Notes: a model not told the origin generated them from the letters alone. DNA of 64,000 bases from Gordius albopunctatus (GCA_964276515.1 OZ193909.1:14508001-14572000); one strand, 5' to 3'. Numbered from the stretch's first letter, positions 1,164-42,530 are shown. Numbers and translations are program-made.

Positions 1164-1173
1164 ATAAAGTATA

Positions 1174-6736: not shown

Positions 6737-7861
6737 TTATTGAACAATGAAGGCTGATTTGGCTTTTGAGGGTCTGCCCCTTTTTCTTTTTTGCCCTAAA
6801 TGCACAAACTTAGCTTCTTTAGGTGTTATGCAAAGTTTAAATTTAATTGCCAAACCCACTATATGTTTGCAAATGTAGTATTTGAAAAACACTGGACAAT
6901 TACATTTACTCTCAAACCATTTTGTGGAATCATCGGGTAATTGACAGAGCCATAGCTTAAAATTCCGCGTCTTGAATTCATCAAATGTTTTGAAGTTTAG
7001 ATTTTTGACATTGCTAATATCTTTTTCATTTATAATCCCGGTACCTGATGGCACACAATATTCGGTAAAATCAAGTTGTTTTTTTGATAGGCAGTGGCCA
7101 TTAAAATTAGCAAATTGGTAGCTCTGAGTCCATAGCTTTAAATTGATAGCTGGTGATTTAATGAATTTTTTTGAATGTTTATACTCGCGTGACCATGTTT
7201 GGATCATATCAATTGGTACCACTTTGAACCTATTGATTGGCATCCATTCCCTCAACGTAAATTCATCTTTTATTAAATGATTAGATGATTCCAGGGCATT
7301 ATTGGTACTAGGGGTATAATGGCTATATCCTTCATGCCATGTATCATTTTTATAAACCCATTCTTTATAAAAATATTCGCAAAACTTTGAGGCTTTAAAT
7401 GACCATTTTTCCAAGAATAAATTGGAGGCTTTTTCAAAGACCTTAGTGCTTTGAGACAATTGTATTGTATTCATATCCTCTAAAATTTCTTTATGGTATA
7501 ATTTATCAGCTAGTATAACATAATCATAAAATATATACAATAATATATTTACCTTTTTTTCTATATTTCTACGGACGTGAGCCCAACAAATGACAATTGT
7601 GTCTTTTCCAATGACAGATTTAAATGCATTATGTATGGAAATTGCCCCATCTGTAATTAATACATCCCACTTGGGAGTTGTATTATTAATAAATTTAAAT
7701 CCATTGATTAAAGTGTTAAATAAAAAAATATATTCTTTTTCTTTTTCATTAACACATAGAGACTTTCCCAAAATATGGAAATGCCTATCATAGTCAGTTG
7801 TTCCAATTATTAATAATGGATAACACTGCCAGGTTATTTTGTATGTTGCATCGGCATGCAA
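6737..7861 (-). CDS. Mutator (MULE) transposase with SWIM zinc finger and AT-hook; 5'-truncated, probably intron-containing
   Basis: HADATYK, TDG, CWAH, STNNALES (DDE core); CNCPVFFKYYICKH SWIM; KRKRGRPSK AT-hook; upstream coding cut at ~8050 by the hAT end. Confidence 0.85.
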   Translation of the reverse strand: MHADATYKITWQCYPLLIIGTTDYDRHFHILGKSLCVNEKEKEYIFLFNTLINGFKFINNTTPKWDVLITDGAISIHNAFKSVIGKDTIVICWAHVRRNIEKKVNILLYIFYDYVILADKLYHKEILEDMNTIQLSQSTKVFEKASNLFLEKWSFKASKFCEYFYKEWVYKNDTWHEGYSHYTPSTNNALESSNHLIKDEFTLREWMPINRFKVVPIDMIQTWSREYKHSKKFIKSPAINLKLWTQSYQFANFNGHCLSKKQLDFTEYCVPSGTGIINEKDISNVKNLNFKTFDEFKTRNFKLWLCQLPDDSTKWFESKCNCPVFFKYYICKHIVGLAIKFKLCITPKEAKFVHLGQKRKRGRPSKAKSAFIVQ

Positions 7862-8328
7862 TATATCTGAAAACTGACTGTTTAATAAAAGCCTAAAACT
7901 AACAGATTATAAATAACTAAATACCTTTTTGTTGACATGAAAAATTTGAAATTGGAATCTTCGTATGACACCATGTAAGATACAATATAGAATTCATCAT
8001 CATCAAAGGGTATTTGAGAATGAGCAATCAGCCACTGCTCCATTTTTCAAATTCTCGTCTCCTCTCGGTTTTTCGAGACGAGACGAGAGGAGACCGAGAT
8101 TTTTCTCGGTTTTTCCGCATCACTTGTTGATTTAAACACAAATTTATATTTATGGTTTGTCTCTAATTAAACACTATTTATATGATTGAATAATTAAATG
8201 CTAAATTTAATATGGAAAAATAATTCTTTAATATTCTATTCCTTCTTGCATAACTTTGCACTTTTTCATTGCACAAGTACCCTTATTGAAACTTACCCAA
8301 TATGGCCTAAGATATTTAATTTTTTTTC

Positions 8329-10738
8329 CTATAGCTGTTTATCACATTTAGTGGTCAGCTCCTTCAAGGAGGTTCTCCATGTATTTCTGCACTTACACCA
8401 GCTTCGCTTAAGCTCGTACATTTTTAAGTCCTTATCAATTTTATGCTTCCATGTCACTTTAGGTCTCCCTCTCTTTCGCTTATCTTCGACTTGCACTTTC
8501 TTGATACGATTCGCCAAGTGACTTTCCTCCCGCCAGTCCAAATGGCCATACCATCTCAATCTTCTTACCACCAACTTTCTCCGAATCTGAACTACATTTA
8601 GTTTGTCCCTTATGTCTTGATTCCTTATATGGTCCTTTTTGCTTATTCCCAAGATCCATCTCAACATTCGCATTTTTATTGTAGCCAAGCTTTGCTCCTC
8701 TTTTGCCTTAATTGCCCAGTTTTCCGCTCCATACAATACCGTGGGTACAATAACGGTGTTATATAACCGTCCTTTTGATTTGAGTGGTAACTTCCTGAAT
8801 TTTAGCCAGCCTGCGTTTATTCTTGCCTTAATTTTGTTTTCCACACCCCTATCACATTGTACCCTAAAACTTTATATTCATTCCCCGACTCCAAGGATAC
8901 ATATTCAGTTTTATCTCGGTTGACCCTAAGGCCGTTGCTTTCGATTCGTTCCATCCACACTTTTACCTGCTCTGCTAATTCCACGTTTGAGCCTGCGCAC
9001 AGGATGATATCATACAAGGTGATTCGCGTTTCAGATCCTTCGTTATCGAATCCATTATTGTTATGAAGAGCAATGGACTTAGGGCCCATTCTTAATGCAC
9101 ACCGACATTTAGACTGAATCCTTTTGATGTACCACTAGATGTCCGTACTTTGGTTTTTGCGTTATAAACATATCATTTATTAACATTATATAAGCCTCGG
9201 GTACACCATTGGAACTCAGGCTATCCCATATCAACTGCCTTGGCACTTTATCGAAAGCTTTCTCAAGATCGATGAAACACATATAAAGATCCTTTTGTTT
9301 TTCCTTATATACTTCCATAAGTCTCCTAAAACCATGTATTGCATCTGAAGTCGACTTTCCTGGCATGAACCCAAATTTTATTTTTCGGAGTCTATCTTCT
9401 ATAAGCTTTTCCCACACCTTCATTACGTGACTCGTTAACTTTATCCCTCGATAGTTGTTGCATTGTTGTACATCTCCCTTCAATTTATAAATAGGTATAA
9501 AATAGCTTTCCCTCCACTCATCAGCCATCATACCACTTGCAAGTATTTTGTTAAACAGCCTTGCAAGTAGATGTACACCTAAGGGTCCTAGCATTTTGAA
9601 AGCTTCCATAGGTCTATTATCAGGTCCCAACGCTCTACCCATGGTCATCTTTTTAAGCACCTGATCAACCTCTTCTTATGTCACTTCTAACTCTGGATCA
9701 TATTCATAGTTCATGCTATCGCACTTGTCCGAAAACCCATTTTCACTGTTTAATAATTCTTTATAGTATTTTTCCCAACCATCTATGATTTGATGATCCA
9801 GAGATAGAGTGATGCTATCTTTGCTCTTTATGGTTTTCACGTTTACCACATCCTTTGAATTCCTTTCCCTGGTCTTTGCGATTTTGTAGATCATTCTTTC
9901 TCCTTCTTTACTGGTTAACTTGGCATTTAAATTCTCGTAGACCTCTATTTTAGCCTTAGCTACACAACGCTTTGCCTCATTTATAGCTTTCACATATGCC
10001 AAGCCAATCGTGTTTCCTCATTTCTGTCGCATGACCATAATTTGTAAAGGTTTCTTTTCCACTTGACCAGGCGTTGCACGTCTTCGTTCCACCACCATGT
10101 CTCCTTATCTTTTTGTATACCTGGTTTACCTTCTCGCAGAACATATCTCGCTACGCATCTTACCGTGTTAGCTATTTAATTCCACATATCGCTAGCATTC
10201 TGCTGATCATCTATTTGCAGCCGTTCAACTATTTGATCATTGTAAATATCTTTCAATTTTGGTAGCTAGAACCATTTGATTTTCCCATTTAATCTCTTCG
10301 GCTATTGTGTTTTCACCTTGGAGATGGTATAGTCCATCACAAAAAATCTATGCTGGACTGCAATAGCCTCACCTGGTATCACCTTATAATCTCCTACATT
10401 CTTTCATTCCTTTCTTGATATTAGGAGAAAGTCAATCTGCGAAGATCGATTTCCACTTTTGTACGTTATTAGGTGATTTATATTGTTTTTGAAGAAGTTA
10501 TTTGTGATGGCCAAATCAAATGCAACTGCTATTTTCAATATTTCGTCACCTTCATCGTTTCTCGCTCCGAAGCCATTTCCACCATGGTACCGTTCAAATC
10601 CTTCTCTTGTTTTGCCTACGTGACCATTCATATCTGCTCCAATTATAACTATCTCGGCTCTGGGTATCATTCGCAGCATTTTGTCTAATTCTCCCCGAAA
10701 TTCCTCATTTTCTTTATCTGTGCATTCTGTTTGCGGAG
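8329..10738 (-). mobile_element. Degenerate RTE-clade non-LTR retrotransposon (APE + RT), multiple frameshifts
   Basis: GADMNGHVG, SQIDFLL (APE); ALGPD, NYRGIKLTS, FGFMPGKST, FIDLEKAFDKV (RT); RRLRWYGH, RKRGRPK C-terminus. Confidence 0.9.
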
Positions 10739-11183
10739 TGTCATATATGACACATATTAATTCTTTGAAGACGAGCAACGAGAGGCGCGGCATATGTGGA
10801 GTCGTGAAAGACGAGCAACCAGAGGCGCAGGGTAATTACCAGGTGCGGGACGATAGCAAGCGAGAGACAAAAGGAAATCTAAGAAGAGTAACATGAAGGA
10901 CGCAAAGGAGAATAACAACTGGCGCGGGACACACAAAGAGAGTATTATCAGAGGCAATAATAACTGGTGGAGGGAATAACAACTGGTGCAAGACCCGAGA
11001 AGAAAAGATTAGTATCCGGAAAAAAGGGACATCGGTGAATATACATAAAAACGAATCAATAAATTTTCCTAAAAGATAAACCGTTTTTGGCATAATTTTG
11101 TACTTGGAATAAAATATTTATCGGACATACGAATTATTCTCGGACCTAATATTGGACTTACGAGTTATTTGCGGACATAATAT
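10739..11183 (+). repeat. Probable LTR inserted into the RTE endonuclease
   Basis: Begins TGTCATATATGACA where the RTE frame breaks; AATAAA at ~11108; immediately followed by a PBS. Confidence 0.55.
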
Positions 11184-11197
11184 TGGCGCCCAACGTG
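11184..11197 (+). promoter_or_regulatory. Primer-binding site, tRNA-Lys type
   Basis: TGGCGCCCAACGTG matches the classical tRNA-Lys PBS. Confidence 0.75.
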
Positions 11198-11474
11198 AAA
11201 AAACCATTATTCGGGAAATCATAAACTGGGAAAAAAGTAAAGTGCGATACGAAGTCGGATACAGATAGGTAAGTTTATGATAAAAATTTTGGGGTATTTA
11301 ATAATAATAATTTGTATATTCTTAAATTGGGCGGAAATTAAGAGGAAATTGTGTAGGATTGTGTTAAGCATCATTATTAGATTTCTAATCAACAATGTAT
11401 ATTAAACGAGAAATGTATGGGAGTATTATGTATATGTAATTGTTTTTTGTGTAGGTTTTCTATTAAATGTTTGC

Positions 11475-11681
11475 ATGTCATGTATTATGGCTGCTTTAAA
11501 AAAATGTGAGGCCTGTGAGGGGCGGAAGCTGAGTATTAGCAATAATGTAAAGTGTTACAAATGCGGAGAGTTAGGCCATGGAATGAGGTCATGTCCGAGA
11601 GATAACCAGGGCCTTATATGTTTTATCTGTCGAGGGGAGGGGCACAGGTCGAGAGAGTGCCCTAGGCGAGTGGTGAAATGA
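11475..11681 (+). pseudogene. LTR retrotransposon Gag remnant with two CCHC zinc knuckles
   Basis: CYKCGELGHGMRSC and CFICRGEGHRSREC. Confidence 0.8.
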
Positions 11682-11909
11682 CTAATAGGGTGTAGAACTG
11701 TGTTTTGGCATGCTTTTAATTGTATTTTGTATATAAAAATATTTAATTTTGTTCTTGTTATGATTGTAAAAAGGATATATCTTTATATTTCATATATGTT
11801 TTACATATTACGTTGGATAAGGCAAAAGTATTTAGACCTAATTAGCTTAGAATTAAAATTGTATCGTTGTGTAGGGAGAGGCAGCTATAAATTTTAGCGA
11901 AGGACGGTA

Positions 11910-12311
11910 ATGGCGAGGTGTGTGTTTAAAATGGGGTTGGGATGGATGAGAAGGGAATGGGGAAAAAGATTAGTAAGAACATATAACTATGTAAAAGTTG
12001 GGGCATTTGCGAATAAACAACCGTGTATCAAGGTCAAGTTGAATGGGGAAACACATCTAATGTTGGTAGATACCGGGTCCGCAATTACGATTATAAATAA
12101 AGAGGCATGGGTTACTTTAGGCAAGCCGAAATTAGACATGAAGTGTACGGTTAACGTCCGCTTGTTAACGGGGCAAGAATGGAAAGTCTTAGGTAAATGC
12201 ATGGTAACAGTTAGGCACGATAAGAATATAAAAAGGGCAGAGGTGTATGTCATGGACTGGAAAGCCATTAATATCGTGGGGTGGGAATGGATTGATGCAT
12301 GTTCGAAGTAG
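11910..12311 (+). pseudogene. Retropepsin (aspartic protease) of the LTR element
   Basis: MLVDTGSAITII and NIVGWEWI motifs; purine tract gaagaaaagggaggg follows at ~12365. Confidence 0.8.
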
Positions 12312-12729
12312 TAGAGTAGATAAACAACAACACAAACAACAACACACACTTAATTCCTAGTGTTGAAGAAAAGGGAGGGCGCCCTCAAGTCTGGTGTAAT
12401 TTGTCAATGTAAAAGATAGGGATAATCAATTTTGTATATAATTTAAAAAGTAAATGTGCTAGGATAAAGAAAAATTGTGAATACATTCCTCTCCCATATA
12501 TCTACGAATTAAATCTATAAAACAATATTTTTACGAATTAATTTGCAAGTTATTGACGTTTGAAAAACGCTATAATCGCGTTTTTGGCGACTTTGACAGC
12601 GAATATTTAAAAAACTTGACGTATAGGGATAAAACTAAAAACATATTTGTCTTCACAGTAAAAAACTCTACCAGAATCTGCAAATAGTTTGCAGGTTAAT
12701 TTCACAAGTCCATTATTTGTTGACCATTA

Positions 12730-13505
12730 GTGACTTTACTTAAATCTTTATTAGAACCAAAAATTCGTTCTAAAGGATGATGATGTGTGACTAATGTAAA
12801 TTTCCTCCCAAAAATATATTCGTGAAATTTCTGTATGGCGAACATTATAGCAGCGGCTTCGCGGTCAATTACAGAATAATTCCGTTCTGCTGGACTTAGA
12901 GTACGAGAGGCAAAAACTATCGGTGTTTCTTGACCACTAATGAATTTATGTGCAATTACAGCTCCTAAACCTTTGTCTGATGCGTCGCATGAAATTATAA
13001 TGGGTAAATTAATTTGATAAAGTTATTGTTTTATCCGTTAAAATTAAGTTTTTTTATTTCGTTAAAGGCCTGTGTTCCTATCATACCCCAATTCCATTTC
13101 ACTTTTGTAGATGTTAATTTTTATAAAATGGAACTTTTGGATTGTAATTGCGGAATATAACTTCCAAGGTAATTAACTAAGCCTAGGAATCATCTCAATT
13201 CTTTACGATTAATTGGTACTTTGAAATTTTTAATTGCCTCAACCTTGTCTTTATTAGGATGAATACCATTTTCATCTATAGTATGACCCAATTAATGATT
13301 TTTTGAACAATTGTAGTTTATAAAGTGCTGTCGTTAATCCTGCATTTTTGATTAATTTTAATGTTTCTATTAGATTTTTATCATGTTCCTTGTTGTTTTT
13401 CCCGCTTATTATGACATCTTCCATAAAAACGCTTACGCCTTTTAAACCTTTGAACAAGTTTTTCATATAACGATGAAATATTTTAGGCGCCGTAGTTAAC
13501 CCAAA
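12730..13505 (-). mobile_element. Ty3/gypsy RT C-terminus + RNase H remnant, truncated by the hexokinase/element A insertion
   Basis: VFMEDVII (degenerate YxDD); minus strand reads CDASDKGLGAV and PIVFASRTLSPAERNYSVIDREA. Confidence 0.85.
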
Positions 13506-14536
13506 TCCAAAAGCGCCTGGATTGCGGTCTGTTGTGGACGTGGACCAAAGATTTTCGTTGCAGCGGGGTCGAAGGGAATGACGTGGTTGCCATGCTCAGC
13601 GAAGCCATTAAACACGAGGGCCTCGAGATCAAAATAGTGGCCATCTTGAACGATTCAACCGGAACCCTGGTTGCTGGCACCCACAAAGATCCCGATTGTT
13701 GCTTGTCTGTAATCATAGGTCCGGGTAGCAACGCGGCCTACTTTGAGAAGATTGAAAATATCGGAATCTGGGAAGGATCTCGGCACCAGCACGAACATTA
13801 CTCGATCATCGATACGGAATGGGGCGCGTTTGGGGATAACGGAGTCATTGAATTTTTGAAAACGCCATTTGACAAAGAAATTGACGCCAACTCCAAGCAC
13901 CCCGGATCCTTTTCGTTTGAAAAATTGTTTAGCGGCTTGTACCTGGGTGAACTAACTCGGGTCATTTTGTGTCACGCGCATCTGGAAGGCCTTTTTCTCC
14001 ACAAGTTGGACGACTGCCCCAAGCAGGGTGACCGCGTTAAGGCTAAACCGGTGTTGATCATCGCCAAAGACGCGTTTCCCACCAAATTCGTTTCAGCCAT
14101 CGAAGAAGAGTATGCCGTGGGGCGCGATGCAAAATTGATGGAAATATTGAAGCAATTGGGACTGGCGGAATACGCGGAAACCGAGGATCGACGCTTTATC
14201 CAAGATTTGTGCGCCGTGCTAATATCGCGGGCGGCTAAATTGGTTGCCGCTTCAATTGCCACAATCCTCAAACGAATGAGTGATAGGCCTCGCTGCGCCG
14301 TAGCCATTGATGGTTCGATGTATAAATTAGTTCCGCGCATCGATCAGCAAATTAAGCATTGGATCGCGGTCCTCTTGCAAGCTAAAACCGAGGTGAAAAT
14401 ATTCCTGTCTGAAGATGGTAGCGGAACGGGGGCGGCCCTTGTAGCAGCGATAGCCGAGCGCATGGCTAGATGCAAGAATGGAGCGGCAGAGCAGAGGATA
14501 GCCATGACTGGATCAACTTCATCATCATCGCCCTAA
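13506..14536 (+). pseudogene. HK: Hexokinase retrocopy (intronless, 5'-truncated; open frame of ~340 codons)
   Basis: WTKDF, VAILNDSTGTL, IIGPGSNAAY, DTEWGAFGD, FEKLFSGLYLGE, AIDGSMY, SEDGSGTGAA; the N-terminal DLGGT phosphate-1 motif is missing; fused to gypsy sequence at 13505. Confidence 0.92.
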
Positions 14537-15038
14537 CAGCTCTCTCTCCGTATTACTACTACTTTATGTACCCATTGTACCCAAATAACAACAATCCACA
14601 AACCCTTTTTTATACCCATCATTTACATGAGTTGGGAAGTCTGTACATAATTGTTTTGACAATTGAGGCGTGTCGACAGACAGACACTATATATTTTTTT
14701 ATGTACACATTTACATCTATTATAAATATATTATGGATACTAGTCAGTTAAGTTGAATACTTACATTGGTATCATCGCTCTAAGTGTAGGGCATATTTAA
14801 TGTTTTGTTTTGGGGCGAAATGAAGATATAATTGATTTTCGGCGTATACTTGATGTGGCAGGACCATACATGTTACACACAATTACACACACACACAAAC
14901 CCTTTTTTGGATTCTCGACATTAATTTTCCACTTGTTAATGTGGTACGTTTATTCGCACAACATGATTCGTAATTTGTGAAACGTTAAATTACCATTCTT
15001 CAATAAAGTCTCACAATTAACGATAAAAAAAAAAAAAA
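14537..15038 (+). other. Hexokinase 3' UTR with poly(A) signal and genomically encoded poly(A) tail
   Basis: AATAAA 15002-15007 followed after 17 nt by A14 at 15025-15038. Confidence 0.85.
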
Positions 15039-15181
15039 TCCGAAGGGTTGGTTATGCCATTCCCTTCGGATCCCCTGGCTACGCTTTTACGTTTCACCAG
15101 GGGGTGTTTTATTAACGCGTTATCATCCTTATGTAAAAAATTATAATCGTCGTTGCGCGTAAATGTGTATGTGTGAACGAA
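15039..15181 (-). ncRNA. Structured 3' tail of element A (three stems, AATAAA)
   Basis: Stems 15038-15047/15062-15071, 15072-15078/15097-15103, 15115-15119/15156-15160; minus-strand AATAAA 15108-15113. Confidence 0.7.
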
Positions 15182-15258
15182 AAATTTTGGGGAGAATAAG
15201 GGAAAATATAAAGTGGCAGAGAGGGCAATAGCGTATAACACGTGGAACAGAAAAAATG
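15182..15258 (-). repeat. 3' copy of element A direct repeat (identical to 17982-18058)
   Basis: 77-bp exact match at offset 2800. Confidence 0.95.
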
Positions 15259-15262
15259 GAGC

Positions 15263-15296
15263 GAATGACGGTGTGTTTTTCTTTCTTGTTTATATA
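15263..15296 (-). promoter_or_regulatory. TATA box + Inr of element A
   Basis: TATATAAA 15296-15289; TCATTC 15268-15263 with the A 30 nt downstream of the TATA start. Confidence 0.7.
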
Positions 15297-15311
15297 GTCT
15301 TGGTCACGTGT

Positions 15312-17204
15312 TTACCGAGGGATTTCGCATCTGTTTTCCTCGCTGCTTTCCTCGAAATTTTCGTTCTCCCAAAACCCTAAGTCGATCTGTTCGTCTAGTT
15401 CGTCCGGTTGAATCTCTGGTATCTCGAAGCCTTGTGGCGGGATGTTGGAGGTGCTGTTGGGTACCGAGTATCTTTCTGGTGGCATCCAAGTTCTAGATGG
15501 TAGGTCGGCCGGATTGTTGTTTGTCGAGGTCCACCTTATGTTATAATGGAGTTTGAGGAGGTGAGATACGTCGTATGTGGCTACGAAGTTTGCAATGATC
15601 GATTCCAGGATAGGTGAGTTTGACCCTCCTTTGAGTAAGACGAAATAGGCTGTGGTGGAGTCAGTAACAATCTTTGGATAGTTTGCCCCATTGTGGATGG
15701 CGTGGAGGTATGCGTAAATGGCAGCGATCGTTTCTGTGGCTGTGATGTGACCACCAATCGTCCATTCCAATCCTATTGCTCGTGCCGCATCTTTAAACGT
15801 GATGGAAAAGTTTTGTCCTTCCCAGGAGATACCTATGTGTTCGTCGGAGGCATCGGCATATATCGTGGTGTCATGTTCCCTGTGTAGAGGTATGATTTGT
15901 TTGAGGATCTCTAGACATCCCTGTAATTTGGCTTGGGCTGCCGGCCTGTCATGGCTTGTGACGTTGTTGTTAGCGGCCATTGCGTAGAAGGTGCTGAACA
16001 ATCTCGGCATTCCGGTGAGATTGTAGTAGAAGTAATTCAGCACCCCTAGGGCTTCCATTAACGTGTAATCCGTTATTGGTGTCGGCGTTGATAAGAAGAG
16101 GTGAAGTATGTCCGCTGCGTACTTCAATCGTGTTTGTGTGCTCGTGGATACTTTGATCGAGTGTGTGCGAAAGTCGAGTATTAACCCCAGGTATTCGATG
16201 GTGTTTGTTGCCCATACTGACGATTTGCTGGTGTTGATGGTGAGGCCCCAGTCTTTGGCCATTTCTGCGATGTTTCCTAGGTCCTCTGTGACGTGATCTT
16301 CGTCCTCTGCAAAGATCAGGATGTCATCAAGGTATACATTGTAGTTGCAATGTTTTACTGCCTTTTTAACCAGATCTGCGACTACTGTTTGGAGTACGAA
16401 GGGCGATAAAGAGGCCTCCATTGGCAGGACCTCATAGTGATATAGTTTTTCTCGCCACTTGTAGCCGCAGTATCGCTTGGCGTTTTTATGTAAGGGTATG
16501 CTGAAGAAAGCGGCTTTCAAGTCTATTTTTGCCGCGTAATTGGCTTTTGCCAACTTTTTTGCTGTGAGGGGGATGGTAGCCAACTTGACTGGTAGATGCT
16601 TAAAATTCTTTGAAGCCTCTGACAAGTCGGTGATCACGCGGGCATCCCTATTTTGTTTAGCTATAAAGAAGGTTGCGGAGGTGATGGCGAGCGACTGAGT
16701 CTCGGATACAACCCCCGCTTCTTTCATAGTGGTGAAATAGACTGGGCTTCCCTTTGAGATGCCTTTACGCCTTTCTGGTCTGAACAGACCGTTATTCCTC
16801 CTAATTTTAGGGAGGTCAAGTGGCGGTTTGAAGCCTTCAAATGCTACTTTCAGCGTGAAGGGCGACATTAGAGGATGCGGCTTTAGCCTTGAAGTTTTAA
16901 TGTCGAGAGGCCCTTTGGGCTTGTTAGCTATGCTTTGTTTTCCCCATAAGAAGACGGCTTTATGCCTGTCCACAAGTTCCGGGATGTGTCCCGAACCGGC
17001 GTCCCCGCCGAGGGATTCGTCATCGGGGTTAGTGCGATTGCTAACGTCGGTGGGTATCTTTGGATACTCTCTTGGCGGTAATGGAGGGGGCTGCGCTGGC
17101 CCGTCGGAATTATCATCATCTGCCGGATGCGCTGGGGAAAAGATTTGGCGGCGGGTCTCCTTTAAGAAGTTTTTAATTTGTTGCCACCACCTAGGAAAGC
17201 CCAA
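15312..17204 (-). CDS. Element A polymerase: RT + RNase H (frame open upstream to 17387; likely reached by +1 frameshift)
   Basis: FFIAK..ARVITDLS, AAKIDLKAAFFSIPLH, VLPMEASLSPFVLQ (G>E change), YLDD, IEYLG; RNase H YADAS..E..TDS..NPADLPSR; track start is TTG. Confidence 0.93.
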   Translation of the reverse strand: MGFPRWWQQIKNFLKETRRQIFSPAHPADDDNSDGPAQPPPLPPREYPKIPTDVSNRTNPDDESLGGDAGSGHIPELVDRHKAVFLWGKQSIANKPKGPLDIKTSRLKPHPLMSPFTLKVAFEGFKPPLDLPKIRRNNGLFRPERRKGISKGSPVYFTTMKEAGVVSETQSLAITSATFFIAKQNRDARVITDLSEASKNFKHLPVKLATIPLTAKKLAKANYAAKIDLKAAFFSIPLHKNAKRYCGYKWREKLYHYEVLPMEASLSPFVLQTVVADLVKKAVKHCNYNVYLDDILIFAEDEDHVTEDLGNIAEMAKDWGLTINTSKSSVWATNTIEYLGLILDFRTHSIKVSTSTQTRLKYAADILHLFLSTPTPITDYTLMEALGVLNYFYYNLTGMPRLFSTFYAMAANNNVTSHDRPAAQAKLQGCLEILKQIIPLHREHDTTIYADASDEHIGISWEGQNFSITFKDAARAIGLEWTIGGHITATETIAAIYAYLHAIHNGANYPKIVTDSTTAYFVLLKGGSNSPILESIIANFVATYDVSHLLKLHYNIRWTSTNNNPADLPSRTWMPPERYSVPNSTSNIPPQGFEIPEIQPDELDEQIDLGFWENENFEESSEENRCEIPR

Positions 17205-17277
17205 GTCTTTATCCCCGTTGAGAGTCGGTTCGCCCGAGGGCCCGTACTCCCACCGGCTGACGGTGTTGCGTATTAAT

Positions 17278-17958
17278 TTACGAACGCGGGGCAGGGGCCG
17301 CGTTCTTCTGGAAGTGTCGGCTCGGCTTTTTGCCTCTGCCCCTGCCAGCTCCTGGAAAAAACGACTTTCGTGGCGACTTGGGTATCGTTATTTCTACATC
17401 CTTGAATCCCATGTCCGTAAGCCATGTCGTGTCGTGCTTGGCTGCGGTTGCCCAATTGAATTTTATGGCCAGGCACAATGTTTTTAATTGCTTATCGTGT
17501 GCCACCAATATTTCCAGGGGGGATGTTGGTAGACACACTTGAGACATCATTATGGCGTATTTTGCTTCGTGTCTGTCTCTTTTTTGAACACGCTGGTCTG
17601 GGTCTCTAAGTAGTTCCTCAAGGCCTTGTGTGTGTTTTGCGATCTCCTCGCATAAGAACGCCGGGGTCTTAGGTGGGTCTGGCGCTGGTATGATTTGGAC
17701 CGTGGATGGCATTTGAATCGGCGCTATATTTGCTGGCTCTAGCTGCCTGTGACTAGGGCCCACCACAGACATCGATGCCGCTAGCATTTCCCTTAGGCTA
17801 TCGATCTGGCGTTGATTCGCTCTGTTCTGTTCCCTCTGCATCTCCACCAGTTTAGATCTTAGGTCCGCCGAGCCCGCACCGGGAACCCCCGGTCTAACAG
17901 GGCTCGGGGGATTGCTAATATCCTCTTGGCCGTCCTCCGTGCTTCTTGTTCTAGGCAT
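17278..17958 (-). CDS. Element A ORF1, Gag/core-like, 226 aa
   Basis: ATG start, intact; clear homology with B ORF1 (PAP.PP.T, GLEEL..DPD, HEAK.AI, QLK..CLAIKFNW.TAA, FFP.AGRG); basic/Gly-rich tail. Confidence 0.85.
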   Translation of the reverse strand: MPRTRSTEDGQEDISNPPSPVRPGVPGAGSADLRSKLVEMQREQNRANQRQIDSLREMLAASMSVVGPSHRQLEPANIAPIQMPSTVQIIPAPDPPKTPAFLCEEIAKHTQGLEELLRDPDQRVQKRDRHEAKYAIMMSQVCLPTSPLEILVAHDKQLKTLCLAIKFNWATAAKHDTTWLTDMGFKDVEITIPKSPRKSFFPGAGRGRGKKPSRHFQKNAAPAPRS

Positions 17959-17981
17959 GTACGGGGGGAAAAAGGCGAAGG

Positions 17982-18058
17982 AAATTTTGGGGAGAATAAG
18001 GGAAAATATAAAGTGGCAGAGAGGGCAATAGCGTATAACACGTGGAACAGAAAAAATG
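17982..18058 (-). repeat. 5' copy of element A direct repeat
   Basis: Exact match to 15182-15258; starts 8 nt downstream of the predicted TSS equivalent. Confidence 0.95.
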
Positions 18059-20530
18059 CGTTAGCTTTTTTATGTTAACAGTTTGTTATTAACGATTCTT
18101 AATTTTATATAATTTATAATTGTAAACAATACGCCGATAAAAAGTATCTTATGTTTATATGCCCATTTTGTCATTAAAGTACATGAGCGTAGCCAGGAAG
18201 ATGGCAGAAGGGGCGAGAATGCCTATGGGGGGGGGTAATGGTTAAGCAGGGAGTCAGATAATACTCGTACAACGTTATAGTTTATTTTAAATATACTATT
18301 TGAATATTAATAATTTAAGTATTAATAAATGTTTTATAGCAATTTTTACAAAAATTTAGCCTTTTTAATATTTGTATTGAAAAAACTAAGTCATCTGTTT
18401 GCATTTTACACTTGATTTTGAGGAATAGGCGAAATGGCCAATGGAACGCAAATAAAGAGTATGACCTTGAAAAAACTAATAGTCATCCTTCCAAAACGTA
18501 CAACTTTTAATTAAGAGTTTATTTGATACTCTATAAATTTAAACAATTTGGTGTAAGGGACATAATTTAAGTTATGAATATAGACTCTATTCAAAATCAT
18601 ACGCGTATGTACAGTATAAAAAACAACAAAGCAAAAATGAAATAGTAACATTTTATCTAATCTAGCGAGTAAATAAATGGATTATGGTGTGAATTTTAGT
18701 TGCGACAGTGAAATGAAGGTAAAAAATTTGCACTATATTCAGGGTTAGGTTGGTGGATAGCGGTTTTATTATCAAAAAGGGACGGGGCAAACCAATCTGT
18801 GAAACGATAAATATAAAGAACCTTTTAAGGGGTGTGGGGTGCGGTGAGACGTCGGAAAGAAATTATATAAGGTCAAAAAATAGAATAAAAAATTTCGATA
18901 TACACTTTGGCCAGTGATTTTTTCCATTGGTCAGCAGGTCAAAAAGCGTGTAAATACATAAGGATCAATTATTAACAAAACTGAAAAAATTTCCAATTCT
19001 TGGCTTCTGTTACGTTTGTTGTTTGGTTTGGGGCTATATTTCCAAAGGGTTTTAGCTGCTAGCTCGAGTCTTTAGTCGTAAACGCTCGTTCTTGTGATTA
19101 AGTTTGCGGGATTTATTAGTCTGCTGTTAGGTTGACAATAGGCTTACTCAAGGATTTATTTAATTTATATCTGAATTGACAATAAGCACATTCAAGAATT
19201 TTTTTGGTGTTATATCAGTCGACAATAGGCAAATTCTAGGATTTTATTCAATCTTTATAGTCAATATATGTCACGAAATGTTTCAGCGGGAAAAGTCTTT
19301 CCGGTAATTCAAGGTGCTTGAGTGGCGGTTCAAAAGGTTATAGGGGATACAGTGATACAGCTCCACGGATAAAAGTTTTGGGGTAATCAGATTATTAAGA
19401 CGGCGCGGGAAAAATAGCAAGGAAAAATAATTAGTGAATTTTAACGGGATACATGGGTTTTTTAATGACAGGGTTCCTTAACCTCCTGAGGTCGTTGCTC
19501 TATTTGCTTATTTTCTATTATCCCTACCTATCCTAAAAAGGAATAGCTATTAAACTAACCCCGGCCTTATTTTCAACTCATCCAAACTTACTTCCTAGCC
19601 CATTAATCTTAATGTTAATAAACTTACGCATTCCCATCTTACATACCGCTATACTAAACTATTCATCCAACTTATTTTCAAGTACGTTGATCTTAATGGT
19701 CAACACAAGTGGAAAATTTCAAACCTTAACTATGCCCATTAATCTTAATAGTTACCTCAACTAGAACATTCCCATCTTTTAATCTTGACAGCTACCCCAC
19801 CTAGAACATTCCCCTCTTTAAATACATTGGTAATAAATAATTAAAGGATGCCTTATTCAATCCTTTGTATACGAACATTCCCAACTTTTAATACACCTGT
19901 GATAACTTATTAGGGTGGGCCCCCTTAACTCCTGAGGATACAACAGGCCAGTGGTTATTTCTTCCATTGGTCAGCAGACGGCCAAATAGATAGCCTATAC
20001 TTATAATATAGAAAAAAAATCGATTTTAATCTCACTTTGGCCAGTGGTCATATTTTCAAATGGTCAACAGACGGCTAAATAGCTAGCCAATATAACATGA
20101 TTTATGATTAGTGTAAAAATAGTTTACCATGTTTTTAATATAACGCTTTTATGAGTATTAAACAAAAAAATAAAATATGTTTAAAATATTTTTATCCTAG
20201 CTGATTTATGCTCAATATCTATTCGTTAATATTAAATTGAATCCTGTTTCCATGCTAAGAGGTTTTATAGTGATTAATATTATGTTACCTGAACATGTTT
20301 TAACCAGCCTCTTAGTTATTGCTGGAGTAGTTGAAGTTCCCAAAATCTTTTGTTCGTTAAATAATTGTATAATGAATTATAACTATTTATTAATGATAAA
20401 ACAACTAAGATATAATTTTACAGAAGTACAATGATGGGGTTTTATTACATTTTGATCAAAAATAATTAATAAAATAAATGAAGAAAGAGATATGTTAAAA
20501 ATCCTATATCGTAAATATCCTAAATTGAAA

Positions 20531-21667
20531 TTATTCGTTATTACAATAACTAACAAAACTTTGTGTGTCATTAAATGAAGGCTTTCTTAAAGAAAGACTG
20601 TTAAAAGCTGCCAAACTTAAAGAACTTCTCGCTTCGTATTCTGGATGGTCATAATTAGGCTTAAAATAAAATTTGATTTCACTTTCATCTTTGGACGCAT
20701 TAGATCGACTTTTCCACAATTCTAATATTAATGCGGAAGACACATTTGGTGTATCATCCAGCGTTATATTATAAAAATTTAGTAGATGAATAATTTGATA
20801 ATCGTGAGCAACGTAAATAACTAAATTTTTAGTCCTTCGGTTAAAACTGTTATTAAATTTTAATTTAATATCTTCAACTAAATTATATAATAAGTCATCA
20901 AGCATGCGACTCTTGTTTGAGATGTAATTGTAGTAAGACAACATTAAGTGAGCCAAATTCGTGTAAATAGTTTTATTGGCCCACGCAGGCAAACCCATTC
21001 CATTTTCGTTCAAGGTTTTTAGCACTTCAAATATCCTGGCAGGCAATCGATCGTCTATGATACCTTCGCTCGTATAATTTTTTAGCGAAAGTAAGAAAGC
21101 CGTTTGGTTTATCAATAAATTATTGTATTCACTATTATTCGATCGAGAAATATGTTGCATACCTTGACTCAGCTTTTTACAATTTTTAAGGCTGCCCATT
21201 AAAAAGCAGGACTCTAACAAAGTTGTCATATTATTAGGAATTTTGACTGACCACTCATAAGGTAGAGTTTTGTTTATAGCCAAAATATCCATATTCTCCT
21301 GAGTTAAAGAATATTTAGGATCATTGTTGCTGATTCCTATTAAGATGGCCAACATGCTCGTAATAGTTCTATCTGAGTTTGTGGATAACAAATGAGTATT
21401 GAAATTAGATGGTGCCGGAGCCAAGTGAAGGTCATGGTTTCCAAAATATTTAGACCTTATAATAGTACCTAGCTGATAGCTCTGATTAATTCCGACATTT
21501 GTGATTCCTCCATATCCATAGGGCCACCTTTGTTCCGATTTATTATACGATGCATATGCATACTTCGGAAAGATAGCTCTAGCCCCGTGCCTCGTCACGC
21601 ATATAACTGCGAGAAGTTCGGCTAAAATAAATATAGTGAAAATAATATTTAGGATTGGACAGTATGC
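20531..21667 (-). CDS. Histidine acid phosphatase (branch 2, secreted/lysosomal-like); the only full copy in the window; 5' exon structure uncertain
   Basis: RHGAR catalytic motif, G.GGIT..G..Q.Y.LG, RTITS, YVAHD; many NxS/T sequons; hydrophobic stretch upstream of the GTG at 21598. Confidence 0.88.
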   Translation of the reverse strand, partial: AYCPILNIIFTIFILAELLAVICVTRHGARAIFPKYAYASYNKSEQRWPYGYGGITNVGINQSYQLGTIIRSKYFGNHDLHLAPAPSNFNTHLLSTNSDRTITSMLAILIGISNNDPKYSLTQENMDILAINKTLPYEWSVKIPNNMTTLLESCFLMGSLKNCKKLSQGMQHISRSNNSEYNNLLINQTAFLLSLKNYTSEGIIDDRLPARIFEVLKTLNENGMGLPAWANKTIYTNLAHLMLSYYNYISNKSRMLDDLLYNLVEDIKLKFNNSFNRRTKNLVIYVAHDYQIIHLLNFYNITLDDTPNVSSALILELWKSRSNASKDESEIKFYFKPNYDHPEYEARSSLSLAAFNSLSLRKPSFNDTQSFVSYCNNE

Positions 21668-24065
21668 CTAAAAGCAATTACTTATATACATTCAATTTTA
21701 TTTATAATACCTTTTCATGTATCCGATTATTAATTTTAATTTAATTGTATAAGATAAATTGTAATACTTTTTAATGAACAAATGATTATTAAATAGTTAT
21801 ATTAAATAAAATTAAAGATATGATTTTATTTATTTATTTTTTTATTAATATGTCAAATTAAGATCAGGAATTTTCATTTATTTTTAGTAAAATTGGATTG
21901 GAATCAAAAAGACCTTTTATTAATTTAAATCTTCGGGTCGAGTCTAAGAATATTACTACTTTTGCAATATCATCAAGCTTATCAAAATTAAAATTCAAAA
22001 ACTTTACTGGATATTTGATTTAAAAATGAAATGTAAATATAAACTTCATGTTGTTCATATATAAGATAAACTGTTTTATTCATAGGTAACTAATTGCAGG
22101 CAATATGATTATGGCATAAGTAACTTATAATATTCTAAAATTAAAATCTATATATATGAATCATTTATTTAATTTCTTGTTAAACGCAATTTGGGAGCCA
22201 CTCAAATTTTCAATCGGAAAATTCTTTTAAATAATATATGCTTTTAAATATTAATTTTGTTTTTAATATTTTCCTCAACTTATTTTAATCTCAGTATATA
22301 ATTTTCACTTCCTGGAAATATTAATTTCGAATATTTGGCCTTTTAAAACATTAAAAAACTATTTTTGGAAGATTTTAAAATTTTTATACACCTCGATTGA
22401 GCTGGAACTACACGTACAGTAAGTTTTAAATTAACATTTAGCCTTACTGTTCGCTTTTTGAGGCACTAGTCAACATTTTTATTCTTACCCTTTGATTTAA
22501 CTTAGCTAAACCTAACTTACTCATGCACAGTTAGTAATTAGTATGATGTGAAAATGGATCTCTATCCAAAATTAGGGTTTATTAATATATTTATATGGAT
22601 TGTATTAAAGGTTTGGACATTTTTTATGCAATAAAATATTCCTTTTAAGAATTATAGTAACTAAATTAAAAAAGTTTTACTTTTAAACATAGCTATTTAA
22701 AAATTATAAATTTGTTATGTGCTTTTAATTGTTTTGATTAAATTGCTTTTTAAAGACAAAGGTGAGAAACCAGAGACGTAGCCACCCCCCTATAGGCATT
22801 CTCGCCCCTTCCCACCTTTATCGCCCATAAATTGCATAGCAAATATGCTACTTTTATACGGAGTATGGATGAGTTTCGTTCCCCCTTCCCTTCCCCTCCT
22901 TCCCTTCCCACGAGGGTTCTTTTCCTTTTTGACATTCATTGAAAAACTACAAACTACCTTACAATTAAATAGACTCTTTGTATATTAAAATAAGATATAC
23001 TACTTTTGGAAACCTCAATTTGTGTCTAGGAAAAAACATTCGATTGAATTATGAAAAGAAGAAACGTTAGATTTAAAAGTTTTTGATATATGGTTTTGCT
23101 CTATGTCCGCATATAAAATCTTTAATTAATAAAATAATTAAACAACTTTACTATTTTAATAATTATACAAATAACACTTACAAGTGTTTGCCTGGGAATT
23201 AGTCATATATATTAGATTTCCCAAAATTTGCAAGAACAAATTAAGTTGGAATAAAAGACATGCCATATTATTAGTAAAAGGTAAAAGTGTTGAATAAGTT
23301 TTAAAACCTGATAACTTTGAACTGCCAAAATGAACTGCCTTAGCTTGTTTATGTTAACAGTTTGTTATTAACATTTCTTAATTTTATATAATTTATAACT
23401 GTAAACAATGCGCCGATAAAAAGGATCTTATGTTTATAGGCCCATTTTGTCGTTAAGGTACATGAGCGTAGCCATGAGGATGGCAGGAGGGGTGGCTGCC
23501 CCCCCCCCCTAAAAAAACTACGGGAAAAATATTTTCAATGCAAAAACTTTGAAAAATTAAAAAAAATTATAACGTTTTGCCCCCCCCCCCTAATCTAAAA
23601 CCTGGCTGCGCCCATGATAAAGTATATCTTCTACGTATATAAAATTCTCGTGTCACAGTCTTTGGTCCTCAACTCCTCCGAAACAGCTGGGCTGATTTAG
23701 ATGGAAATTTCTGCGAATATTTGGTAGGTCTGAGCCTAGGTTTTTAACTATATTCCAAATCTCTAAGTCATAAGACGGTCAAGTTATTTAGTTTTATACG
23801 TCTTGACGTTTATTAAAATATCACTCAAACGCAACCTCATGACGTACTGCGTATCTATCGTGTAGGTAGTGTGATAAATGCAGTAGGCATGTGTTGCGGA
23901 AAATGGAAACTTTTTACGATTTAAAACATTAAATATCAAAGTCATTTTTTTGCTTATTTTTCACGTCAATTATTATTATTATAGGACGGTCGTGTCCCCT
24001 CCTGCGTGGCTAAATAAATTAAAAAATCTAATTTTGGCATTTTTTGCGCGTTAAATAAGGAGAAA

Positions 24066-25863
24066 GTTTGTGCGACCAGTGGGTGTGGTTTTTGATTATT
24101 GGTTATGAAGTGGCTCATGATGATTATCGCTGCGTCAATTTTTCTAAGGAACTTGGCGTTGATAGAAAGTTAATGCTGGGCTAGGTTGAGAGCATTCGTT
24201 GTGGTGTGGTTTCAGATTTCTGGGTATTAATAGATAGATTCCATTTGTTTGCTAGTTTTAGGAAATTCCTCGTGTTTTGTTGTACCAGGGCAGCTATCTT
24301 GCCATATATTAGGATGTCATCCAGATATACATTGTATCGACAGGTAGGGATGGATTTAATGCACAAGTCCAACATAATTTGTTGCAGTACAAATGGGGAA
24401 AAAGATGCTCCCATAGGCAGCACCCTGTATGAGTATTTCGTTCGTCCTGATTTAAAACCGAACAGGTCTGAAATTGATGGGTCTAATTGGATATCGAAGA
24501 AAGCGCTCTTCATGTCAATCTTTCATGCGTAGTTGGCCTCCGCTAAAGGTTTAGCAATTAATGGGATAGATTTTAGCAAAAAGGGGTATGACGCGAAGTT
24601 TTTTGAAATGATGGATAGGTCTGCGATCATTCTGGGGGACCCATCAGATTTGGGTATAAAATACATGGGGGATGCGATCGCGAGACGATTCCTTCGTACA
24701 ATGTAGGTATCGATGATTTGGAGTACTAGGTGCCGATGGACTCTAGGAATAGGTCGAACGTACCGGGGGACAAGGTACTGCCAGTTGTTGTTCGCAAGGG
24801 TCCTACTATTGAACCGAGGTTCAAAGCCCCGTCTAGCAACATTATAAGTAAACTTGGATTGTGTATGATGTGGCCTGAGCAATGTGGTATTGAGGTCCAA
24901 TGGTGATAAAAATGGAGTCTTGTTTCCATTGCTTATGTCCCGAAAGGCCGGGAAATTGGGGATGTTAGAAGGTTCATGGATGGTGGGGATCGATTCACTA
25001 TCGAGTCCGATATCATGTAGGGGGGTATTAATATATTCCGCCATATCTGGGTGGGTCGGTAGCGGCGTGAAAGGGGTCTTTAGTGGAGGGGCCCCTTCGT
25101 CCGGACCATCATCGAGTGAAACAGAATTGATAGCGATGCTCCGGGCTATACGAATGTGATTGTCTAGCCATATTGGAGCAGTCCGTCCCCAAAAATGCTC
25201 GGCGGATTATCACCACAGCCGAGGGCCGCCCCTGCCGCCCTTACGTCTTTCTGTTGAAAGGCGCCTTCCTTGGCATAGGCTTTTCATAGTTCGGCCGAAA
25301 AGAGCTAATCTGTTCACTCATCTGTCGGAACCCATTTTTCACAGCCCAGTCTTTGGTACGTCCGGTGACTACCTGCCATCCGTAATATGTTGCCATTGCG
25401 ATGGTTTTAACCCGTTCGGCGAACACTTCGGTAGCTTTGACCTGATCATTCCATACTTCACCTAATTCCAGAAGGAAATCGATTTCATGTTTTGGATATA
25501 AGGGTACTGCTTTGTTCTTTTTATCAGCCTCCTTCAAACCTTTAAGTCGTTGCTTTAGTAGTTCAGGTCCTATTTGTTCCACGCCGAGACTCTTTTCTTA
25601 ACCTCACGGGCTATCATTTGGTTTAGCTCTTCAGGAGTGAAGGACATCGTGTGGGGTTAATACTTGTGGAGATTATCCGGTTTTGTCGAGGCGGGTGTAA
25701 ATTAACCTTTATTTTTGTCTTTAGCGTTGTTTTACGTGTCGTAACGCCCAACTTACCCATAATTTTCATTTATTATATTTCCGCGTTTATAATTACGTTT
25801 CTAAAATAAAATAAAGTGGAGATGGCGAAATATTTTGCGTAACCATCCCCAGGGAGGACCTCT
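24066..25863 (-). mobile_element. Lineage C RT element, copy 2 (decayed)
   Basis: Near-identical to 1613-3410. Confidence 0.85.
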
Positions 25864-26897
25864 TTATTTTGCTCTCACTTTTTTAATTAAATCCAAAACA
25901 TGTGGATCTAGTAACATTTTTGAGATCCAATGTTTGTAGAGGTTGAGAAACCTGAGCATTATCAATAGATCGGATATATTTTAAAATTAGCTTACTAGTA
26001 ACATTGTTGATGTCCAAAAAAATATTCATAGACATTCATAGACATTTTGTCAGTTAAATTTTTGTCGAATGAACGGTTACCAAATAGACTGCTCATTGAG
26101 CATGCATACATATGAAAATGTGACCCCTGTTTTACCACCATATTGAACTTATGCAGGTAAGTTTACATTTTATTCTTTGATATGTTATAAATTTGATAGA
26201 TGGAGTCATTAATGCAAAATGTTACCTTAGAAAATGACATATGTAGTGACATCAACATACGTAACGTCAATCAAGTACGATGTCAATTCCGAGAAATAAG
26301 TTAATCACAGATTTGAATTTATTTTCCTAGAAGATCGCACGCTATGACGTCGATTGACAGATCTTCCTTGAAACTTATCGGTATATTTAGATCTTCTCAG
26401 AAGATCATAGATATATTTAAGTCTTCCCAGAAAATAATCGATCTTCATGGAAACTCATCGATTAATTTAGATCTTCCAAGAATATTATCGATTTTCCAAT
26501 AATAATGATTATGTATTTTATAATAACTATATAAACTCAATTTTTACGCAAATATAACCAGTCGAATAATTCTAACAAGATGAATTGTATTCTTTTTCCA
26601 AAATTATCCTCGTATAAGAGAGGAAAAGATAACAACGAGTTATAAAACTTACATGGGAAAGCCGCCTTTTTTACATGTTTTCTTCAAAAAAAATAACCAT
26701 TTTGTTAAGGAATTTTCAAATGAAATAAACAAAAAGGTTTTCACCACGTTATACAAGCAAGAAACGTATTCTATCAAAAGACATTTTTTTCTTTCCAATG
26801 ATATTCTAATAAATGTGAGATTATTTTTTATTTGATATTTAAGTTATCCCCACAAAGATATTTTTACTTCAATCATAGAAATAGACTATGTTGATTT

Positions 26898-42511: not shown

Positions 42512-42530
42512 CTGGATGCATAGGGTTTAG

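Follow-up and report, generated by a model that had tools for sequence, protein, structure and literature searches.

Within a 64,000-nucleotide stretch of the genome of Gordius albopunctatus (GCA_964276515.1 OZ193909.1:14508001-14572000; hereafter the window, with positions counted from its first letter), positions 15039-18058 of the minus strand are occupied by a retroelement of 3,020 bp, which we call element A. Our analysis suggests that A is probably a recent insertion of a repeated 3-kb retroelement family encoding only a first open reading frame (ORF1) and a reverse transcriptase (RT)-RNase H polymerase (pol), and that this particular copy is likely inactive. A sister lineage, element B (42232-45303, minus strand, 3,072 bp), lies in the same window and is the one full-length relative of A that tblastn with the A proteins found there.

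In the sense direction, A consists of a repeat copy at the 5' terminus, R1 (17982-18058, read from 18058 to 17982), ORF1 (17278-17958; 226 amino acids), pol (15312-17204), an internal repeat copy, R2 (15182-15258), and a tail of 143 nt (15039-15181), all on the minus strand. R1 was delimited by self-comparison and by paralogous sequence; both repeat copies measure 77 nt and are 100% identical, their spacing is 2,800, and a 53-nt spacer separates the end of pol from R2. The pol frame comprises 630 codons from a TTG and is open from stop to stop from 17387, and the interval 17205-17387, which holds the ORF1/pol overlap and a conserved pol-frame stretch 5' of the annotated pol start, contains a putative +1 frameshift site. 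The tail is single-copy, self-BLAST having found no second copy of it in the element or the window. It carries an AATAAA hexamer that resembles, and may serve as, a poly(A) signal (15108-15113), followed by hairpin 2 (15072-15103; CCCCTGG...CCAGGGG), recognized by folding and by a stem-pattern search, and by terminal hairpin 3 (15039-15070), whose 9-bp stem in the RNA fold has a 3' arm ending on the last base of the element (...CCCTTCGGA); the final bases are GGA. The 5' limit of A is fixed by its paralogue at 37614/37615, and the 3' limit by a depth step at 15038/15039 in public runs together with a second flank. An earlier note on this DNA, made from the sequence, had given the extent of 3,020 bp, repeat spacings of 2,800 in A and 2,792 in B, and complete identity of the repeats, and all of these numbers are correct.

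Element B was delineated by tblastn with the A proteins, by its repeats and folds, and by paralogous sequence. Its two repeats (42403-42511 and 45195-45303) are 109 nt each, 100% identical and spaced by 2,792; ORF1 (44455-45183) encodes 242 amino acids, pol (42531-44378) encodes 615 from an ATG, and the tail (42232-42402) contains AATAAA (42304-42309) and two hairpins, as judged from sequence and fold, all on the minus strand. Placing the start of B at 42232 gives it the same ...GGA end as A. The proteins of the two elements are 41% identical in ORF1 and 50% in pol by tblastn (51% for pol in the alignment), in keeping with the claim that they are homologous yet differ at many amino acids. The claim of an identical architecture held for the layout, which is the same in A and B, but not in two details: R1 of A lacks the TATA and initiator (Inr) sequences found in the B repeat, and a TTG stands in A at the position of the pol ATG of B.

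Comparison of the coding sequences of A and B yielded, for pol, a nonsynonymous rate (dN) of 0.48-0.49 and a saturated synonymous rate (dS; undefined by NG86, 2.16 by LWL85), a ratio of at most about 0.23, with identities of 0.61, 0.68 and 0.36 at codon positions 1, 2 and 3; for ORF1, dN/dS was 0.36-0.43. Since these ratios lie well below 1, both ORFs have evolved under purifying selection. The earlier note had argued that the missing integrase is the native state of these elements rather than the outcome of decay, and its case is supported by the finding that A and B, at about 50% identity in pol, share one set of genes maintained by purifying selection. A third, more distant lineage is represented by fragments of the N-terminal half of RT at 1613-2700 (minus), about 24066-25150, 47445-48300, 55548-56711 (minus) and 60876-61253 (plus), which are 33-51% identical to the pol of A and B by tblastn and in which tblastn found no RNase H or ORF1 match; because they are RT fragments only, they provide no third test of the architecture.

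The product of pol is an RT-RNase H of the virus-like class. Pfam recognized RVT_1 in the pol of both elements (E = 7.7e-24 in A) and, even at E<=10, nothing else save a sub-threshold RT_RNaseH match in B, while the alignment of A and B showed conservation of the RT aspartates (KID.., YLDD) and of the RNase H residues (DAS, E, TDS, NPAD.PSR). An AlphaFold model of A pol (mean predicted local distance difference test score, pLDDT, 63.3) was folded only at residues 102-575, which form fingers and palm, a helical thumb and connection, and RNase H; residues 1-101, apart from one short helix at 5-22, and residues 576-630 were predicted to be disordered. When the model was compared with the PDB by Foldseek, the best matches were the RTs of cauliflower mosaic virus, Moloney murine leukaemia virus, xenotropic murine leukaemia virus-related virus and Ty3 (E values of 1e-15 to 1e-17), and the best match in a PDB profile search was the Ty3 RT 4ol8 (44.5 bits). 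Neither A nor B encodes a protease, integrase, tyrosine recombinase or endonuclease, as judged from their ORFs, Pfam at E<=10 and the pol model, and the predicted structure leaves no room for these enzymes, for a recombinase of any kind or for a terminal-protein domain. Ten other ORFs of the window were scanned for a tyrosine recombinase or integrase, and none was present.

ORF1 belongs to no known family. Nothing reached Pfam's own cut-off, the sole listing being Milton in ORF1 of A (E 0.13, 12.8 bits), and no homologue was found among 7,999 scored candidates. Its model (mean pLDDT 59.4) consists of a long helix, a proline-rich linker, a small helical bundle and a disordered, basic C-terminal tail rich in arginine and glycine, and Foldseek returned no PDB match at E<=0.001. 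Position, helical core and basic tail together suggest a nucleic-acid-binding protein with a Gag-, capsid- or core-like role.

Relative to ORF1, pol lies in the +1 frame in both A and B. The overlap stays open for 107 nt in A and 122 nt in B, and 5' of the annotated start some 60 codons of the pol frame are open and conserved in both elements. Across the 24 codons between the ORF1 stop and the ATG or TTG, identity by codon position is 17, 15 and 11 of 24, and these codons, lying 3' of the ORF1 stop, carry no second constraining frame. We infer that pol may be made as an ORF1-pol fusion through a +1 frameshift at or near the ORF1 stop (TCG-TAA-A in A, AAT-TAG-A in B), in which case the TTG that replaces the ATG of B would be no defect in itself. 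Antisense to the ORF1/pol junction of A runs an ORF of 242 amino acids (16759-17487, plus strand) with no Pfam match; the antisense ORFs of B at this place are shorter, at 128 amino acids, and the ORF in A is probably a by-product of GC-rich, stop-poor sequence.

The repeat is pyrimidine-rich and unstructured, with blocks conserved between A and B, namely a C[CT]ACGTG box and a 3' end of the form ..TTCTCC..AAAATTT. In both lineages a TATA sequence lies 54-57 nt, and an Inr-like TCAYTCGCT about 20-25 nt, upstream of this box. In B the TATA (TATAAATA) and the Inr TCACTC fall within the repeat (positions 2-9 and 31-36) and hence occur at both ends of the element. The aligned sequences of A, the core-promoter-like TATATAAA (15289-15296) and Inr-like TCATTC (15263-15268), sit just outside the repeat, directly upstream of R2 (15263-15296 together, minus strand), and are absent from R1, which starts 8 nt past the A of the Inr. 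A contig of a diverged A-type subfamily retains the TATA with a different spacer (a loose end at 15267). The placement of these motifs in both lineages suggests that TATA and Inr may serve as a core promoter.

The tails of A and B align in patches only, yet fold alike: AATAAA is followed by two hairpins and a flush ...GGA end. The last 77 nt of A fold with -37.4 kcal/mol (z = -6.4) and the last 79 nt of B with -36.1 kcal/mol (z = -3.7), and in neither case was any of 200 shuffled sequences as good. The terminal hairpin has an equivalent in B with another stem sequence in which pairing is kept; the stem pattern of hairpin 2 occurs in the window only in A and B (none expected), and one of its stem pairs is changed on both sides between the two (G-C versus A-U). 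Searches of Rfam gave no match at gathering scores over the whole window and none at E<=1 for A and B, which excludes a recognizable ribozyme, tRNA-like element or hepadnaviral epsilon. We also rejected an epsilon-like fold for the 5' repeat and leader, since the leaders folded no better than shuffled sequences (z = 0.0 and 0.4). Likewise, a run of 14 T residues beside the 3' end of A was rejected as a priming link, since B and a second flank of the A family have no such run.

Two public runs from one organism, here X1 and X2, contain the locus, their contigs matching the unique left flank and part of A without differences; none of the listed runs containing the locus was an RNA run. Over 14539-18558, 1,832 contig pieces from X1 and 815 from X2 matched at 85-100% identity. 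Summed contig depth does not equal copy number and was used only to show that the family is repeated and diverse: in X1 it was 3,200-77,000 on the element and about 970-1,150 on the left flank. At the 3' end of A, depth rose between the adjoining 13-nt bins 15025-15037 and 15038-15050 from 461 to 16,554 in X1 and from 13 to 585 in X2, and in each run one contig with a different flank ended at 15038. The earlier note would have taken additional ORFs beyond the GGA end in other copies as a refutation of its reading; the repeated part stops at 15038/15039, with nothing conserved further. The contigs of both runs cover the repeat, the tail and the end of pol with the same boundaries. Other copies differ from the window at 668 points; the 40 best supported of these include 34 within pol, 26 of which lie at third codon positions. 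A flip/flop inversion of the terminal hairpin loop, as expected under self-priming, was also looked for, and none of the best-supported differences falls in 15039-15070.

Depth was uneven along the family, with X1 sums of 58,000-103,000 on the hairpins, 10,800-27,000 on the repeat and 6,000-11,000 on the 3' end of pol; the excess on the hairpins would fit either 5'-truncated copies or stronger conservation. In both runs the hairpin-2 region (15064-15102) has five- to tenfold the summed depth of the 3' end of pol. Separately, some loose contig ends represent subfamilies in which the hairpins of A run into a B-like AATAAA context, a pattern that hints at mosaic or non-autonomous relatives with a common 3' end.

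The copy in the window carries a change in RT motif B at codon 263 (16416-16418, minus strand), which encodes glutamate in A and glycine in all relatives aligned: the motif reads LPMEAS in A and LPMG in B, in two Gordionus proteins and in one metagenome relative. This confirms the glycine-to-glutamate change that the earlier note had pointed out. At 16417, all seven X1 contigs and all nine X2 contigs differ from the letter in the window, and because no run contig carries that letter, Glu263 is private to copy A. On the strength of Glu263 and the promoterless R1, this copy was probably dead on arrival or soon after.

The window is a tandem array of units of about 22-23 kb (22.4-23.4 kb), 98-99% identical, which start near 1, 22470 and 45837; an inverted partial copy (61700-64000) lies at the right end, and the units carry several unit-specific indels. 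Unit 1 alone contains A and unit 2 alone contains B, and therefore both were inserted after the segmental duplication. The 5' flank of A (18059 onward) continues in unit 2 from 37615 with 98.9% identity. There, the intact left half of a 300-nt repeat precedes position 37615, whereas beside A this repeat is cut exactly at the element: its right 157 nt (18059-18215) adjoin the 5' end, so that A lies inside or truncates one member of the repeat family (727-1023, 23196-23492, 37472-37771, 46563-46859, 53995-54293 and 62139-61841). Two nucleotides at the 5' junction of A are shared with the uninterrupted paralogue, a microhomology. On either side, B adjoins sequence that in the 99%-identical paralogous unit lacking B is contiguous or arranged differently, and because paralogous sequence delimits both sides, its inserted unit comprises ORF1 and pol only. 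It lies between the equivalents of 20243 and 21937, where unit 1 holds 530 nt; the first 300 of these (21407-21706) are also present in the inverted copy at the end of the window and missing from unit 2. The target of B has lost DNA, at least 300 nt and, by comparison with unit 1, 530 nt. No target-site duplication was found at the four junctions of A and B. Unit 2 also contains a 1.2-kb tandem duplication (39749-42231; 2.04 copies), a third partial copy of which, 53 nt long, abuts the 3' end of B; the duplicated stretch includes an ORF resembling a histidine phosphatase (20531-21355 in unit 1; weak His_Phos_2 match).

These observations can be assembled into a replication cycle that would run as follows. 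Transcription would start from the TATA/Inr core promoter, which in master copies such as B lies within the 5' repeat, and the transcript would end past the AATAAA and the hairpin tail. Pol would be made as the frameshifted fusion described above, and the flush 3' hairpins would be recognized by the RT, or serve it as a priming site, for copying of the RNA. A transfer through repeat homology would then restore the promoter part of the 5' repeat, a step that would have succeeded in B and failed in A. In the last step, host end-joining would attach the linear DNA at a chromosomal break; such joining would explain the absent duplication, the 2-nt microhomology and the lost target DNA, and we infer from these junctions that the family integrates through host end-joining or DNA repair.

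Several points weigh against this account. No transcript ends were seen that would bear out the putative promoter, poly(A) site and frameshift, and the excess depth on the hairpins may reflect conservation and not 5'-truncated copies. The junction evidence comes from two insertions only. At its 3' junction, A has no paralogous empty site, 13506-15038 and 36014-37614 being unrelated, and a rearrangement unconnected with the insertion is possible on that side. The sequence just upstream of R2 of B is not purine-rich, and the usual fixing of the left end by a polypurine tract is therefore without support. It is also possible that an integrase or recombinase is supplied in trans from elsewhere in the genome.

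Relatives were sought among 1.84 billion representative proteins with a profile built from the pol of both elements. At E<=1e-30 there were four matches, three from Gordionus sp. (374, 285 and 180 bits) and one from a metagenome (125 bits), the remainder scoring about 110 bits or less; by this search, the only close relatives are those in the horsehair worm Gordionus. A tree of RT-RNase H sequences was built from 60 rows, without named DIRS references and after removal of a duplicate (P0211), a shorter cluster member (P0063) and matches that did not span both RT and RNase H. In it, A and B group together (Shimodaira-Hasegawa-like approximate likelihood ratio support, SH-aLRT, of 99) as sister to two Gordionus rows (99), the whole standing on a long stem; the neighbours next to them, unnamed proteins on contigs of 2.0-4.1 kb, join at 94, a node that carries no star. 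Rows with a weak match to the hepadnaviral polymerase C-terminal family (PF00336) and rows with a DIRS-type methyltransferase are scattered, the nematomorph clade joins no row with a Dam-like domain with support, and integrase-bearing long terminal repeat (LTR) rows are set off by a fully supported long branch. Scanning IMG/VR with the same profile revealed no relative, and a scan of metagenomes produced 36 loci, the best at 28-36% identity. In the four loci inspected (L001, L003, L004 and L005) no direct repeat spanned the element; all four are degraded or partial, and for that reason they are silent on the architecture. A single-protein search with a hepadnavirus-labelled neighbour returned no named relative. 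Among open-access papers and bioRxiv preprints we found no description of a 3-kb element with ORF1, RT-RNase H and such a repeat-and-hairpin layout, nor of such elements in Nematomorpha.

Two other readings of A and B have to be weighed, each of which we regard as unlikely. One holds that they are non-autonomous, being stripped-down relatives of DIRS/Ngaro/PAT-like or LTR elements that borrow a recombinase or integrase in trans from autonomous elements. Many of the best non-nematomorph matches do carry the Dam-like methyltransferase typical of DIRS-type pol, and one has a tyrosine recombinase; a lack of target-site duplication and unusual partial repeats are, moreover, traits of DIRS-like elements. 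Against this, the gene content is the same, and under purifying selection, in lineages whose pol identity is only about 50%, and no recombinase or integrase was found in A, in B or in the ten window ORFs scanned. The split-repeat scheme of DIRS-like elements (A1...B1-A2-B2) does not apply either, given that the tail of A has no second copy upstream of R2, and in the tree the nematomorph clade joins none of the Dam-labelled rows with support. The loss of target DNA at B is also unlike a conservative site-specific recombination. The other reading, to which we assign a similarly low probability, takes the copies for an endogenized episomal pararetrovirus of the hepadnavirus, nackednavirus or proto-nackednavirus kind, whose linear DNA was integrated by host repair, and not for a within-genome transposon. 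The size of 3.0-3.1 kb, the presence of two main ORFs, the first of which encodes a basic-tailed protein and overlaps the polymerase frame, the RT-RNase H without an integrase, and the TATA and poly(A) signal beside a direct repeat would all suit such a virus, as would integration without duplication and with loss of target DNA. Genomes of Blubervirales are given as 2.7-3.5 kb with C and P ORFs and direct repeats in two papers (PMC11551314; PMC12691608). Contigs of 2.6-3.6 kb harbour several near neighbours, which give weak matches to the Pfam family of the hepadnaviral polymerase C terminus, and an Atlas cluster of hepadnaviral protein P ranks eighth by features (0.94), which counts as a lead only. 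On the other hand, there is no terminal-protein domain, PF00242 giving no match at E<=10 and residues 1-101 of pol being predicted as disordered save for helix 5-22; the A/B alignment shows no conserved tyrosine in that region. An epsilon-like element is lacking as well, both by Rfam at E<=1 and by the folding of the leaders (z = 0.0 and 0.4), and no homology of ORF1 to a core protein was detected. The host runs show the family to be highly repeated, and its many diverged variants, mostly synonymous, agree with a long proliferation within the genome; the integrated form cannot close into a simple unit circle that retains the tail. No head-to-tail or go-back joint was seen among the 15 of 25 joints listed, which, the contigs being short, is not evidence of absence.

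That the two-repeat layout might be an accident of local duplication or mis-assembly, rather than a feature of replication, was prompted by the window itself, which is full of segmental duplications in tandem units of about 22-23 kb and of many rearrangements. The repeat, however, occupies the same two places in two differing elements and contains conserved blocks, the contigs of two runs show the same boundaries for repeat, tail and pol end, and the repeats lie within single elements and not between duplicated units; we therefore consider such an accident very improbable. Together these data favour a repeated family that encodes ORF1 and RT-RNase H only and of which A is a recent and likely inactive insertion.

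Several other features of the array lie outside A and B. An uninterrupted ORF at 13532-14536 (plus strand) encodes the C-terminal two thirds of a hexokinase (Hexokinase_2, E = 8.5e-62); the homology between units 1 and 2 ends at 13505, just before this ORF, and unit 2 is without the hexokinase part. Each segmental unit contains one array of a 21-nt AT-rich tandem unit (ATTGCTCAGTAATTTAATAAA-like; 5908-6230, 28354-28676 and 51645-51967) and one ORF of 245 amino acids with a SWIM zinc-finger match (6737-7474, minus strand, with paralogues at 29183-29920 and 52474-53211). Further RT fragments are located at 9109-9648 (minus), 57686-58483 (plus) and 35798-36259 (minus); two of the three match RVT_1 (E = 3e-13 and 5e-29), one weak tblastn match reaches 27% identity to B pol, and the three appear unrelated to the A/B family.

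Virus-like retroelements are defined largely by how they integrate, through a DDE integrase, through a tyrosine recombinase or, in pararetroviruses, not at all. Against this scheme, the element type described here is a new variant among virus-like retroelements without an integrase, for which kinship to HEART or to Blubervirales is only a candidate. The window offers two lineages with intact frames (the pol of A is open, but has a TTG at the ATG of B and the motif-B glutamate), dated insertions and precisely located ends, together with candidates for a promoter and for 3' hairpins that act in cis, and thereby makes it testable how an element with only RT and RNase H moves. If insertion by host repair is true, the family would be a rare integrase-free relative of elements near the root of the hepatitis-B-type viruses, and if the clade sits beside Blubervirales, it would bear on whether pararetroviruses arose from retrotransposons or the reverse. 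More speculatively, and in our estimation possible though doubtful, A, B and the Gordionus relatives may constitute an undescribed superfamily of autonomous, integrase-free, virus-like retroelements with ORF1, RT-RNase H, a promoter-bearing split repeat and flush terminal hairpins, which live as transposons and whose linear cDNA is passed to host end-joining. Such a superfamily would be related to HEART and Blubervirales as their chromosomal cousins, and it would show how one design can exist both as a hepadnavirus-like replicon and as a transposon.

HEART, hepadnavirus-like retroelements of invertebrate genomes, were reportedly described by Gong and Han in Mol Biol Evol in 2018. Like A and B, they sit in the chromosomes of invertebrates, have an RT related to virus-like retroelements and lack a settled means of integration. 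Two papers cite them as the invertebrate retroelements closest to Blubervirales (PMC12691608; PMC11551314), and Kojima (2025) terms them enigmatic and notes that their mobilization mechanism is unresolved, that sequences are few and that conserved RT residues are often mutated (PMC12440569). The HEART rows of the PMC12691608 supplement that we compared by eye come from Ixodes ticks and have LPFG as motif B and YIDN or HLDN as motif C, where A and B have LPMG or LPME and YLDD, while a hepadnavirus row of that supplement has motif strings patterned as in A and B (PMG..LSPF, AAF.HIP). Blubervirales resemble A and B in their size of about 3 kb, their small basic-tailed first ORF overlapping an RT-RNase H polymerase, their lack of an integrase, and a TATA and poly(A) signal beside direct repeats. 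Unlike Blubervirales, A and B have neither a terminal-protein domain nor epsilon, give no hepadnaviral polymerase Pfam match and are highly repeated in the chromosome; the contigs, all short, provide no evidence of a circular episome, and the repeat measures 77-109 nt, its 3' copy being followed by a hairpin tail.

The relations among the RT and RNase H domains of DIRS-like elements, VIPER and hepadnaviruses are described as poorly resolved (PMC6681497). DIRS-like elements (DIRS, Ngaro, PAT and VIPER/TATE) share with A and B the lack of a target-site duplication and terminal repeats that are not true LTRs, and sequence searches with the latter bring up DIRS-type pol proteins; A and B differ in lacking a tyrosine recombinase, a methyltransferase, inverted repeats and complete split direct repeats, and the target of B lost DNA at the insertion. 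DIRS-like elements are defined by inverted terminal repeats plus an internal complementary region, or by split direct repeats of the form A1...B1-A2-B2. In the latter terms A1 and A2 are present as R1 and R2, and B2, the tail, has no copy upstream of R2 by self-BLAST. With LTR retrotransposons (Ty3/Gypsy and kin), A and B share the structural class of RT-RNase H, a gag-like ORF that precedes pol in another frame, and a repeated segment that carries the promoter, as U3-R does. In contrast to LTR elements (Ty3/Gypsy, BEL and Copia), they have no protease, integrase, full 5' LTR, TG..CA ends or 4-6 bp duplication, no primer-binding site or polypurine tract was recognized in them, and the 3' repeat copy is internal, with a unique tail of 143-171 nt beyond it. 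From long interspersed nuclear elements (LINEs) they are separated by a virus-like RT with RNase H, by the lack of an apurinic/apyrimidinic-type (APE) or restriction-like (RLE) endonuclease, and by a 3' end that is a hairpin terminating in GGA without an A-run; the flank of A has a T-run on the sense strand. Double-stranded linear DNA of hepadnaviruses and endonuclease-independent LINE-1 both insert at chromosomal breaks without an element-encoded integrase. These insertions resemble those of A and B in the lack of target-site duplication, in microhomology and in target deletions, but they are side reactions of elements with another normal lifestyle, whereas for the A/B family insertion at breaks would be the regular route.

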